Source: Escherichia phage vB_EcoM-UFV09. From it: a stretch of DNA of 64,000 nucleotides. The position numbers and the translations under genes are program-made. The notes beneath the pieces are model-generated. The model ran no database searches and was not told the DNA's origin. It saw only the letters and a program-made list of their open reading frames with translations. Positions 2,842-5,080 of the stretch are shown piece by piece; within the stretch, counting starts at the first letter, position 1, and every line of letters starts with the position of its first letter. The stretch lies in the sequence record MZ291552.2; one strand, given 5' to 3'.

Positions 2842-3315
2842 TTATTTGATTTGTTTAGCAGACCAAATGCGGTCTTTAATAATTTTTTGGATGTCTTCAA
2901 CATACTCAAGAGAATGAGCATGTGGGTTATCTTTAAAGCTATGAGCACGAGCTAGCTTTTGGCCTTCAGTTTTGATTACTAAAAGCTCTTTAAGGATAGC
3001 TTCATATTTGGAGATAATTCCTTTAACGATATTTTTTTCTTGTGCGACTTTAGGATCTGCTTTAGGAGCAGGTTTACCCGAAGCCTTTGCAAAAGCAGCG
3101 CCAGTAGCAACTAAACTTTTCCAGGCCATACTAACTGCATTTCCCGTAAATCCTTCCGCTTTCATGTCGCGTGCGAACTGGAATCGTGATTCATCAGAAG
3201 CATCTTTGTAAGAATATTTACCCGCTGCAATGGCTGCTTTTGCGACAGCTTGAATTTCGGTGCTAGATGCTTCATTTAACACCGCTTCATTTAAAAATTG
3301 AGTATATGATTTCAT
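2842..3315 (-). CDS. Internal-protein-like head protein with an N-terminal capsid-targeting sequence
   Basis: N-terminus MKSYTQFLNEAVLNE resembles the T4 internal-protein targeting sequence (MKTYQEF...), with LNE protease-type sites; basic, Lys/Ala-rich body; late promoter and AGGAAA Shine-Dalgarno upstream. Confidence 0.6.
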   Translation of the reverse strand: MKSYTQFLNEAVLNEASSTEIQAVAKAAIAAGKYSYKDASDESRFQFARDMKAEGFTGNAVSMAWKSLVATGAAFAKASGKPAPKADPKVAQEKNIVKGIISKYEAILKELLVIKTEGQKLARAHSFKDNPHAHSLEYVEDIQKIIKDRIWSAKQIK

Positions 3316-3351
3316 CTTATTTCCTGTTTTAATTCGTGGATTTAATATACT

Positions 3352-3359
3352 TATTTATA
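3352..3359 (-). promoter_or_regulatory. T4 late promoter (TATAAATA) for the internal-protein-like gene
   Basis: + strand TATTTATA is TATAAATA on the minus strand, about 35 nt upstream of the start at 3315. Confidence 0.55.
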
Positions 3360-3361
3360 CT

Positions 3362-3389
3362 AAAAAGCCCCAACCTTTTGGTCGGGGCT
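3362..3389 (-). terminator. Rho-independent terminator upstream of the internal-protein-like gene
   Basis: Minus-strand hairpin AGCCCCGACC-AAAA-GGTTGGGGCT followed by a T run; near-identical copy of the hairpin at 2807-2834. Confidence 0.6.
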
Positions 3390-3440
3390 AAGCCTTGCGG
3401 CAACCTTGTCGGGGTTCCACCTGCTAAGGCAAGTGTTTGT

Positions 3441-3532
3441 ACGAAACGCCGGGATTCGAACCCGGTTATTAAGCAGTTGACGCTACTCAATATTTTTAAA
3501 AGGCCATATCTCGACCATATCCGAACGTTCCG
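3441..3532 (-). ncRNA. tRNA-like element; possible stable small RNA or degenerate type II tRNA
   Basis: Intact T-arm (CCGGG-TTCGAAT-CCCGG) and a 7-bp acceptor helix (CGGAACG with CGTTTCG), but no canonical D or anticodon arm; no minus-strand ORF across 3390-3700. Confidence 0.3.
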
Positions 3533-3696
3533 TCAAAAACGCTACTCGGCTTACGGCAAAGATATTTCCTCGAATCGATAATTCGGTGCGCCGTTTCTGC
3601 TGTGATAGTAAAGAGCCAGAACACAGTAAAACTGTGGGAGGAAACTATACTCCAGGGAACATCAGTCCGACGACTTACCGGTAGCGACCCGGTTTC

Positions 3697-4047
3697 TTAG
3701 TATTCTTTTAAAGCATCAATTTGTTCACGGCGTTTACGCCATAAATCAATTGCTTCATAAGCAGATTCAGCATTTCGAATTAGCCGACATTTATATAAAG
3801 ACTTGTGATTTTGGTATTGCGTAGATAATGGAATTTTATCTAAAAGGTCTTTGCGTTCAAAGTATTCGTAACCATCTAAACCAAATGAACGATTTTTGAG
3901 AAATTGCCAATGACCATATTCGTTTTCGACATAAACATAATCTGCATGCTGATAAAGCAAATTAATTACACGTTCAGAAATAACAGTATCATTATGATTA
4001 AAATAGAATGTTAAATCATGAACTACTAAATAAACATTACCTTTCAT
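3697..4047 (-). CDS. Hypothetical protein next to the tRNA array
   Basis: 116-aa ORF immediately downstream (minus-strand sense) of tRNA-Arg. Confidence 0.55.
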   Translation of the reverse strand: MKGNVYLVVHDLTFYFNHNDTVISERVINLLYQHADYVYVENEYGHWQFLKNRSFGLDGYEYFERKDLLDKIPLSTQYQNHKSLYKCRLIRNAESAYEAIDLWRKRREQIDALKEY

Positions 4048-4065
4048 ATTTTCCTCACTTATAAT

Positions 4066-4141
4066 TGGTCGAGGCAGTAGGGATCGAACCTACGACCCAG
4101 GACTTAGAAGGTCCTTGCTCTTCCTTCTGAGCTATGCCCCG
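4066..4141 (-). tRNA. tRNA-Arg (anticodon TCT)
   Basis: Hand-folded cloverleaf: acceptor CGGGGCA with TGCCTCG, anticodon loop CTTCTAA, T-loop TTCGATC, encoded CCA. Confidence 0.8.
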
Positions 4142-4145
4142 TAAT

Positions 4146-4221
4146 TGGGGTGACCGATGGGAGTCGAACCCATGACTACGAGAATCACAATCTCGAGTTC
4201 TACCAACTGAACTACGGCCAC
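4146..4221 (-). tRNA. tRNA-His (anticodon GTG)
   Basis: Hand-folded: acceptor GTGGCCG with CGGTCAC, anticodon loop TTGTGAT, T-loop TTCGACT, CCA. Confidence 0.75.
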
Positions 4222-4335
4222 ATTAATACCTACTCCAACAATCATGATGTCTTCACACGAAATTAAGAGAAGAGTGATCAGTTCAACCCCTATAATCGCG
4301 TCAAGTAGATATTAATGTGACAGTTGTCACAAATT

Positions 4336-4410
4336 TGGCGGACGTGATAGGATTCGAACCTATAACCAATCGCTTAACAGGCGATCGCTCTGCCATTGAG
4401 CTACACATCC
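4336..4410 (-). tRNA. tRNA-Asn (anticodon GTT)
   Basis: Hand-folded: acceptor GGATGTG with CACGTCC, anticodon stem ATCGC/GCGAT with loop CTGTTAA, T-loop TTCGAAT, CCA. Confidence 0.8.
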
Positions 4411-4414
4411 AAAT

Positions 4415-4501
4415 TGGTGGGGAGTGATGGAGTCGAACCACCCGAGTCGCAATGACAATGAATTTACAGTCCACACCGCTACCTCTACGGGATAACTCCC
4501 C
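4415..4501 (-). tRNA. tRNA-Tyr (anticodon GTA), type II with long variable arm
   Basis: 87 nt; acceptor GGGGAGT with ACTCCCC; anticodon loop CTGTAAA; the anticodon stem relies on G-U pairs, so the isotype is less certain. Confidence 0.6.
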
Positions 4502-4507
4502 TTAATT

Positions 4508-4582
4508 TGGTGGCCCTGGGTGGAATTGAACCACCATCTGGCGATTATGAGTCGCTTGCTTGAACCTTCCAGCTACAGGGCC
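4508..4582 (-). tRNA. tRNA with CAT anticodon (Met, or Ile2 if lysidine-modified as in T4)
   Basis: Acceptor GGCCCTG with CAGGGCC, anticodon loop CTCATAA, T-loop TTCAATT; sits between Thr and the next tRNA where T4 has tRNA-Ile. Confidence 0.7.
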
Positions 4583-4583
4583 T

Positions 4584-4659
4584 TGGTGCTGATTGACGGA
4601 ATCGAACCGCCGACATCCTCATTACAAGTGAGGTGCTCTACCTACTGAGCTAAATCAGC
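4584..4659 (-). tRNA. tRNA-Thr (anticodon TGT)
   Basis: Acceptor GCTGATT with AATCAGC, anticodon stem CCTCA/TGAGG with loop CTTGTAA. Confidence 0.8.
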
Positions 4660-4664
4660 AAAGC

Positions 4665-4754
4665 TGGCGGAGGCGATAGGATTTGAACCTATGAATCGCC
4701 GGAGCGACTGCCGGTTTTCAAGACCGGTGCATTAAACCACTCTGCCACGCCTCC
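4665..4754 (-). tRNA. tRNA-Ser (anticodon TGA), type II
   Basis: 90 nt; acceptor GGAGGCG with CGCCTCC, anticodon stem CCGGT/ACCGG with loop CTTGAAA, long variable arm. Confidence 0.8.
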
Positions 4755-4756
4755 AG

Positions 4757-4830
4757 TCTCCATACAAGGATTTGAACCTTGGACCTCCTGATCCCAAATC
4801 AGGCGCTCTACCAAACTGAGCTACACGGAG
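4757..4830 (-). tRNA. tRNA-Pro (anticodon TGG)
   Basis: Acceptor CTCCGTG with TATGGAG (two G-U pairs), anticodon loop TTTGGGA; CCA not encoded. Confidence 0.75.
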
Positions 4831-4840
4831 TAAATTAAAT

Positions 4841-4914
<74 letters not shown>

Positions 4915-4919
4915 AAATT

Positions 4920-5006
4920 TGGTGCGAGAAGTGGGACTCGAACCCACAAGGAAATCATTCCGCAGCATTTTAAGTGCTGTGCCTTTACCAATTTGACCAT
5001 TCTCGC
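4920..5006 (-). tRNA. tRNA-Leu (anticodon TAA), type II
   Basis: 87 nt; acceptor GCGAGAA with TTCTCGC, anticodon stem CAGCA/TGCTG with loop CTTAAAA. Confidence 0.8.
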
Positions 5007-5007
5007 G

Positions 5008-5080
5008 CTGGGAATAAAGGATTCGAACCTTTGCATCTAGCAGTCAAAGTGCTATGCCTTACCAACTTGGCTAATTCCCA
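5008..5080 (-). tRNA. tRNA-Gln (anticodon TTG)
   Basis: Acceptor TGGGAAT with ATTCCCA, anticodon stem TAGCA/TGCTA with loop CTTTGAC; 1-nt gap to tRNA-Leu, as in the T4 Gln-Leu dimeric precursor. Confidence 0.75.

Follow-up and report, generated by a model that had tools for sequence, protein, structure and literature searches.

By its sequence, the element flagged on the minus strand at positions 3441 to 3532 is the 3′ two-thirds of an ortholog of phage T4 rnaC (species 1 RNA), an RNA that is already known. The feature is real; the earlier note, which had described it as a tRNA-like element with these boundaries, saw nt 47 to 138 of a stable RNA of 139 nt that is known from T4-type phages, so that the 5′ 46 nt were missed and the limits have to be redrawn to 3440-3578. 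Its suggestion that this could be one of the stable small RNAs that T4 makes beside its tRNA genes was borne out, as T4 annotates rnaC at the homologous position, and the copy in the window (the whole 64,000-nt stretch of DNA analysed, which is a segment of a T-even-type phage genome) is identical over 139/139 nt (100%) to the annotated rnaC of phages RB3 (“rnaC: species I RNA”), RB10, and Aplg8. Taken together, the identity, the fold, and the processing logic of rnaC described below are very probably correct, a judgment from which our guess about its role is excluded. In what follows, nt n of the RNA is window position 3579-n, and the locus contains the following features:

3440..3578, minus strand: complete rnaC (species 1 RNA) ortholog, 139 nt, placed by end-to-end alignment with the T4 misc_RNA rnaC

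3585..3700, minus strand: rnaD (species 2 RNA) ortholog, in the same transcript and immediately upstream, with approximate ends from alignment to T4 rnaD

3366..3439, minus strand: structured 3′ trailer ending in the intrinsic terminator of the operon, placed by terminator scan, fold, and conservation

3697-4047, minus strand: 116-aa ORF between tRNA-Arg and rnaD, from the ORF list

4066..5080, minus strand: upstream tRNA cluster with 11 tRNAs called by ARAGORN, ten of which Rfam confirms

Species 1 RNA was discovered about fifty years ago and sequenced in the 1970s. In the T4 reference genome (NC_000866), rnaC is annotated as a misc_RNA, “species 1 RNA” (T4s001), at 70908-71046, and rnaD as the misc_RNA “species 2 RNA” at 71053-71171, the two following directly after tRNA-Arg; since the RNA is already annotated there, its recognition in the window has little importance as a discovery. 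The window rnaC starts with TCGATTCGAGG and ends with CGTTTCGTA in a three-way alignment that includes T4 and is collinear throughout, and its 139 nt match a T4 record with 98.6% identity. A blastn search with window positions 3340-3720 matched 813 phage records (T4 at 91%), and the 139-nt rnaC sequence itself is carried by 745 phage records. We built a custom covariance model of the rnaC family, which gave a sole match in the window (157 bits, E ~9e-41) and one rnaC copy per phage locus; with this single match, rnaD was rejected as an rnaC paralog or second rnaC copy.

The operon reads, on the minus strand, tRNAs, small ORF, rnaD, rnaC, structured trailer, terminator, and rnaC lies, as T4 rnaC does, on the tRNA strand, 3′ of rnaD and 5′ of the operon terminator. 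The T4 locus has the same strand and the same order of rnaD, rnaC, trailer, and terminator, but tRNA-Arg abuts rnaD in T4 whereas the 116-aa ORF separates them in the window, and the window phage has 11 tRNAs compared with 8 in T4. The window RNA is a member of the T4 rnaC family and shows every defining feature that could be tested.

We found that rnaC is a four-way junction with the topology of a tRNA cloverleaf, consisting of P1, P2, P3, and a T arm. P1 takes the position of the acceptor, P2 that of the D arm, and P3 that of the anticodon/variable arm, while the T arm is in its usual place, and at the junction the helices are joined by spacers of 0, 8, 1, and 0 nt. The parts of the RNA are:

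3571..3577, minus strand: 5′ strand of P1, CGAUUCG, nt 2-8, identified by covariation as the true partner of the 3′ acceptor strand

3442..3448, minus strand: 3′ strand of P1, CGUUUCG, nt 131-137, followed by U138 and A139, placed by sequence and covariation

3501..3570, minus strand: P2, an interrupted long arm of 70 nt, nt 9-78, in the D-arm position, placed by covariation

3531..3536, minus strand: apical loop of P2, UUGACG, nt 43-48, proposed kissing-loop partner as the complement of the P3 loop

3493..3500, minus strand: single-stranded linker UUUAAAAA, nt 79-86, between P2 and P3, unpaired in the MFE and consensus folds

3467..3492, minus strand: P3 hairpin, nt 87-112, with a 10-bp stem and the 6-nt loop CGUCAA (3477-3482), placed by covariation

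3449..3465, minus strand: T arm CCGGG-UUCGAAU-CCCGG, nt 114-130, read directly from the sequence

The complete 139-mer folded with an MFE of -50.2 kcal/mol (z -4.55), and 0/200 shuffles were as good. We aligned 24 distinct homologs from GenBank phage records, IMG/VR, and metagenomes, which represent about 10 genera (Tequatro-, Mosig-, Gapriver-, Dhaka-, Kanagawa-, Karam-, Moon-, Gelderland-, Mosuguk-, and Marfavirus). The RNAalifold consensus of these homologs reproduced the MFE architecture with compensatory changes in 27/40 pairs, and the window sequence forms every one of these 40 pairs. Across the 24 homologs, 96.8% of cells were paired under the consensus model, compared with 40-52% for slid controls, and in a shuffle test of this model 0/500 reached the observed value on each of the five measures.

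P1 is an acceptor-like helix of 7 positions made from the 5′ and 3′ ends of the RNA, which includes a conserved tandem U.U and abuts the T arm. It was paired in 100% of cells across the 24 homologs, with pair 4:135 being G-C in 13, A-U in 10, and G-U in 1, and pair 2:137 being C-G in 23 and A-U in 1. Pectobacterium phage PM2 has U-A/U-A in place of the tandem U.U (nt 5,6 x 133,134), and from these two U-A pairs we conclude that P1 is one continuous helix. The earlier note had drawn a 7-bp acceptor-type helix between CGGAACG and CGTTTCG; its 3′ strand, CGTTTCG, is real, but covariation assigns this strand to the 5′ end of the RNA (nt 2-8) and not to CGGAACG, which (nt 47-53, window 3526-3532) forms the 3′ strand of the P2 tip helix. 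This tip helix (38-43:48-53) was 98.6% paired, with 5 of its 6 pairs compensatory. P2 as a whole has five helical segments, which were 93.8-100% paired and showed compensatory changes in 16/20 pairs, and 8/10 stem pairs of P3 were compensatory while C97, G98, C100, and A102 of its loop were invariant. Within the linker, A83, A84, and A86 were invariant among the homologs.

The T arm, which had been described as perfect (CCGGG-TTCGAAT-CCCGG), is indeed present on the minus strand at 3465-3449. In the full-length fold its base-pair probability was at least 0.99, and across the 24 homologs its stem was paired in 99.2% of cells, with one covarying pair; the third pair of the stem is U-A in 12 homologs and G-C in 10, and the loop is non-canonical in two (IME523 and PM2). 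The T-loop core GGTTCGAATCC occurs at 3 sites in the 64 kb, all of them on the minus strand (tRNA-Asn, tRNA-Gln, and rnaC), and given that 0.01 sites were expected by chance, the motif in rnaC is not a chance occurrence.

The two apical loops suggested a further contact within the RNA. The P2 loop UUGACG (nt 43-48) is the exact reverse complement of the P3 loop CGUCAA (nt 97-102), a match with a probability of ~0.025% for two composition-matched random hexamers. Both loops are nearly invariant while their stems vary freely, the six inter-loop pairs could form in 99.3% of cells compared with 17-51% for slid controls, and in the Klebsiella Marfavirus clade A46-U99 is changed to G46-C99. Because the loops are exactly complementary and show this one compensatory change, P2 and P3 may be joined by a 6-bp kissing-loop lock, possibly a new observation, which we consider about as likely to be right as not. 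One compensatory event in one clade makes the support suggestive only, and the invariance of the loops could equally mean protein binding. The geometry would be plausible: with 10 bp from P3, 6 bp from the kiss, and 5 bp from the P2 tip, the contact would make up ~21 bp, which could run antiparallel to the ~20-22 bp base of P2 by turning at the 3-nt bulge at nt 34-36. The covariation-backed fold with its invariant complementary loops offers concrete mutants that can be tested.

A minihelix of acceptor and T arm is recognized by RNase P, by 3′-trimming exonucleases, and by T-loop modification enzymes, and in the 1970s-80s the Abelson, McClain, and Apirion laboratories reportedly studied the RNase P/RNase III processing of species 1 RNA and its T/pseudouridine content. 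By analogy with tRNA biology, stacked P1 and T arm would provide rnaC with such a minihelix. Transcription would place the RNA at the end of the transcript of the phage tRNA operon, and because the P1/T-arm minihelix would be the substrate module of these tRNA enzymes, it would be excised from the polycistronic precursor as a tRNA is and then accumulate as a stable species. In Karamvirus, rnaC is found inside the array between tRNA-Trp and tRNA-Gly with tRNA-like spacers of 5-6 nt, a position which fits excision of this kind. For T4-type phages, species I RNA is described as co-transcribed with the tRNAs, with termination after the species I gene (PMC2330249), and T4 RNAC, which a Northern blot with an RNAC probe showed to accumulate in infected cells as a stable transcript of ~139-140 nt, was classed as a late RNA (PMC9697503).

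The tRNA-like end would then serve as a processing and stability handle, and the functional part would most likely be the P2/P3 domain, probably locked by the kissing loop, together with the conserved A/U-rich linker. Deletions of the T4 tRNA region are viable in laboratory hosts, so any role of rnaC would be conditional. Our guess, which we hold with low confidence, is that a tRNA-shaped RNA might bind or titrate a host or phage protein that recognizes tRNAs, and candidate targets for such a decoy would be a defense nuclease that attacks tRNAs or an enzyme that processes or modifies them. That rnaC is both a compact tRNA mimic, with its two non-tRNA arms locked side by side by the kissing loop, and, by virtue of this shape, a decoy or sponge for a host tRNA-recognizing factor during infection we consider unlikely as a combined proposal. 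If the decoy reading were true, an RNA orphaned since the 1970s would gain a function; few T4 genes besides rnaC and rnaD combine abundant products with no assigned function.

The roles of RNAC and RNAD were stated to be unknown in papers from 2010, 2022 (PMC9697503), and 2025 (PMC12685909), and recent papers term them small regulatory RNAs without giving evidence (PMC9697503). We weighed whether rnaC could be a base-pairing regulatory sRNA in which the linker GGCCUUUUAAAAAUAU or an invariant loop pairs with host or phage mRNAs and the tRNA-like end is a mere handle. The linker is conserved and unpaired among the homologs, and an A/U-rich single strand beside hairpins resembles Hfq-binding modules, both of which would suit such an sRNA. 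On the other hand, a search of the 64-kb window for the complement of the linker with up to 3 mismatches found no site but the gene itself (1 found compared with 2.15 expected), and the mutual complementarity of the two invariant loops suggests that they are used intramolecularly. We regard a regulatory sRNA as distinctly unlikely.

We compared the distribution of rnaC with what would be expected if it were purely a cis-acting 3′ structural cap or processing platform of the tRNA operon that lacked an independent function. Its place in T4-type genomes, at the operon's 3′ end and shortly ahead of the terminator, would suit a cap, but in Karamvirus, Gelderlandvirus, and Mosugukvirus rnaC is found in mid-array between tRNAs, at differing sites. 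Phage JS98 (NC_010105; locus excerpt ~595-830) has no rnaC detectable by the covariance model and yet keeps rnaD, the trailer, and the terminator, whereas Dhakavirus LHE83 does have rnaC. Furthermore, a cap has no need of invariant loops beside stems that covary in 10 genera, and we consider it very improbable that rnaC is only that. Because it is precisely absent from JS98 and takes varied positions in the arrays, rnaC acts as a movable cassette in the manner of a single tRNA gene. At the sensitivity of blastn and pattern searches, no member of the family was found beyond phages of Enterobacterales, and the matches from two pattern scans of IMG/VR and one metagenome scan were confined to T4-like phages of enterobacteria and variants of the Marfavirus type. 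One candidate distant homolog (L032) was discarded as a chance match in a GC-rich coding region.

The reading in the earlier note, of an independent tRNA-like unit of ~92 nt at 3441-3532 closed by an acceptor CGGAACG:CGUUUCG, possibly a degenerate or decayed class II-type tRNA, is highly improbable. Its helix can be drawn between CGGAACG (3532-3526) and CGTTTCG (3448-3442) as 6 Watson-Crick pairs plus 1 G-U, and in phage PG7 it has 7 perfect Watson-Crick pairs; the isolated 92-mer adopts this fold, if weakly (z -2.4), and in 3 orthologs ARAGORN builds a tRNA of 94-96 nt on a CGGAACG-type helix. Conservation of the helices in related phages, on which that reading depended, held for the T arm but not for this helix, which was 85.7% paired across the homologs, a value that exceeds slid controls, and broken in many of them: pair 3 (49:135) in 11/24, pair 4 (50:134) in 6/24, and pair 7 (53:131) in 4/24, with 3 mismatches per 7 positions in the Gelderlandvirus, KLB31, and fGh-Ecl01 homologs. 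Its lone compensatory pair, 50:134, occurs in a single homolog, and the D-like helix of the same model was 76% paired with no compensatory changes. Forcing the helix in the 139-nt RNA gave -36.9 compared with -50.2, a cost of 13.3 kcal/mol, with pair probabilities of ~0, and both of its strands have better-supported, covarying partners elsewhere. In addition, the T4 annotation gives the mature RNA a length of 139 nt and a start 46 nt upstream of the 5′ end of this unit.

The proposal of a degenerate tRNA was not supported, as numerous compensatory changes have preserved the non-tRNA arms P2 and P3, the body is unlike the phage tRNAs, and the anticodon that ARAGORN assigns varies among orthologs. 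A decayed copy of one of the phage's own tRNAs was likewise rejected: the body (nt 54-113) scored z ~0 against all 11 tRNAs, with the signal coming from the T arm alone. The statement that the element has no standard D or anticodon arm was correct, and ARAGORN and Rfam at gathering thresholds call nothing at 3441-3532. Infernal covariance models also called no standard tRNA there, although short of calling nothing at all they gave a best clan match, to tRNA-Sec, at 16.6 bits (compared with a threshold of 47; E=2.6), and this weak alignment uses the CGGAACG:CGUUUCG helix.

The full-length rnaC is not a decoding tRNA, because it has no encoded CCA, no 7-nt anticodon loop, and no conserved anticodon. 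As had been noted from the sequence, no CCA is encoded: past CGTTTCGTA, whose last nucleotide is A139, the sequence reads CAAACA. A genuine decoding tRNA, as implied by the GenBank labels tRNA-Lys (G4507) and tRNA-Met (PG7) and by ARAGORN calls in 3 orthologs, deserves next to no credence: the ARAGORN anticodons differ by ortholog (Lys-UUU, Phe-GAA, and Met-CAU) and fall in the linker, which has no conserved anticodon stem, and ARAGORN calls no tRNA at rnaC in the window, T4, RB69, or most homologs. In 3300-4100, RF00005 had no match even at E up to 10, and cmscan of this interval against 4227 Rfam families at E up to 10 gave noise-level matches only and no tRNA-like sRNA family. The ARAGORN tmRNA search was negative as well, with no Rfam tmRNA match and no conserved ORF at rnaC.

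What rnaC shares with a canonical tRNA (RF00005) is the cloverleaf four-way junction, the acceptor-like helix formed by the ends, the 5-bp T stem with its UUCGAAU loop, the location in a tRNA array, and presumably the same processing enzymes; its T arm, with a GTTCGAATC-type loop, adjoins the terminal acceptor helix just as in a tRNA. It differs in having a 70-nt helix for the D arm and a 10-bp hairpin with a 6-nt loop for the anticodon arm, in lacking an anticodon and an encoded CCA, in the tandem U.U of its acceptor, and in scoring below all tRNA-model thresholds. With tmRNA it shares the character of a stable non-decoding RNA and, in the tRNA-like domain, an acceptor helix of both ends beside the T arm and the replacement of the anticodon arm by a long helix. 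Unlike tmRNA, it has no G3.U70-type alanine identity pair (the equivalent pair is A4-U135 or G4-C135), no encoded CCA, no tag reading frame, and no tmRNA-type pseudoknots, and it is 139 nt long compared with ~360 nt.

Several other non-decoding RNAs, namely YrlA, mascRNA, the vtRNAs of gammaherpesvirus 68, and the TLS of plant viruses, borrow the module of T arm and acceptor, which lets tRNA enzymes process, modify, or stabilize them. In borrowing this module rnaC would resemble these RNAs by analogy. The bacterial Y-RNA-like YrlA carries its tRNA-like module internally and uses its termini for the Ro-binding stem, a permuted topology relative to rnaC, and mascRNA and the vtRNAs are near-full cloverleaves that receive CCA.

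That the locus instead encodes small proteins, as overlapping “hypothetical protein” annotations over the rnaC region in many GenBank records and the overlapping ORFs (53 aa and 42 aa on the minus strand, 81 aa on the plus strand) would have it, is scarcely conceivable, as every frame of both strands meets a stop in one or more of the 24 homologs, indels shift the frames, the ORF starts over rnaC are non-ATG, and the substitutions in rnaC are pairwise compensatory within RNA helices. The earlier observation of no minus-strand ORF is sound as regards any substantial one, the two just named starting with TTG (53 aa) and GTG (42 aa).

The 3′ ~94 nt of rnaC are labeled tRNA-Met or tRNA-Lys in PG7 (NC_023561; locus excerpt 646-740), G4507 (NC_054919; 646-739), and also OQ599310, and ARAGORN reproduces these labels and adds a tRNA-Phe in Pet-CM3-4. 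Such tRNA labels and the hypothetical-protein CDSs over rnaC appear to be systematic mis-annotations, and the mislabeling inflates phage tRNA counts. Most of the 745 carrier records leave rnaC unannotated, which gives its recognition practical value for annotation. The RNA itself appears to be without an Rfam family, and because no Rfam family matches, the 24-sequence alignment and its structure could seed one.

The neighboring elements of the transcript showed features of their own. The ends of rnaD are strongly conserved while its middle (~3610-3650) is wholly different among the window phage, T4, and RB69, and the window rnaD had no unusual fold stability (z -0.28). In a 2025 evolution study of a T4-like phage, rnaD was the site of a SNP that was both adaptive and convergent (PMC12685909). 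When the precursor context was folded (3440-3618, minus strand, 40-nt flanks), the MFE structure paired CGUUUC of the rnaC 3′ strand with GAAACG of the rnaD 3′ end in place of the rnaC 5′ end, possibly an alternative pairing that the unprocessed rnaD-rnaC precursor might adopt. Further upstream, the 116-aa ORF is also present in RB69 (ORF150c) and G4507, and in the window it ends with a stop codon that overlaps rnaD at its predicted 5′ end.

On the other side of rnaC, the 3′ trailer (fold z -4.49) is highly conserved in T4, RB69, and JS98, and this conservation exceeds the needs of a plain terminator. It consists of a CACUUGCC...GGCAGGUG hairpin, small hairpins, and the intrinsic terminator (stem 3389-3366, minus strand, followed by a T run), and it contains an internal direct repeat, CCCCGAC-AAGGUUG / CCCCGACCAAAAGGUUGGGG.

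Within the tRNA cluster, a SegB homing-endonuclease target has been described in the tRNA-Asn of T2L, RB1, and RB3 (PMC2330249). In the window, a gap of 114 nt with no called gene (4222-4335, minus strand) lies between tRNA-His and tRNA-Asn, the other tRNA spacings being 0-10 nt.
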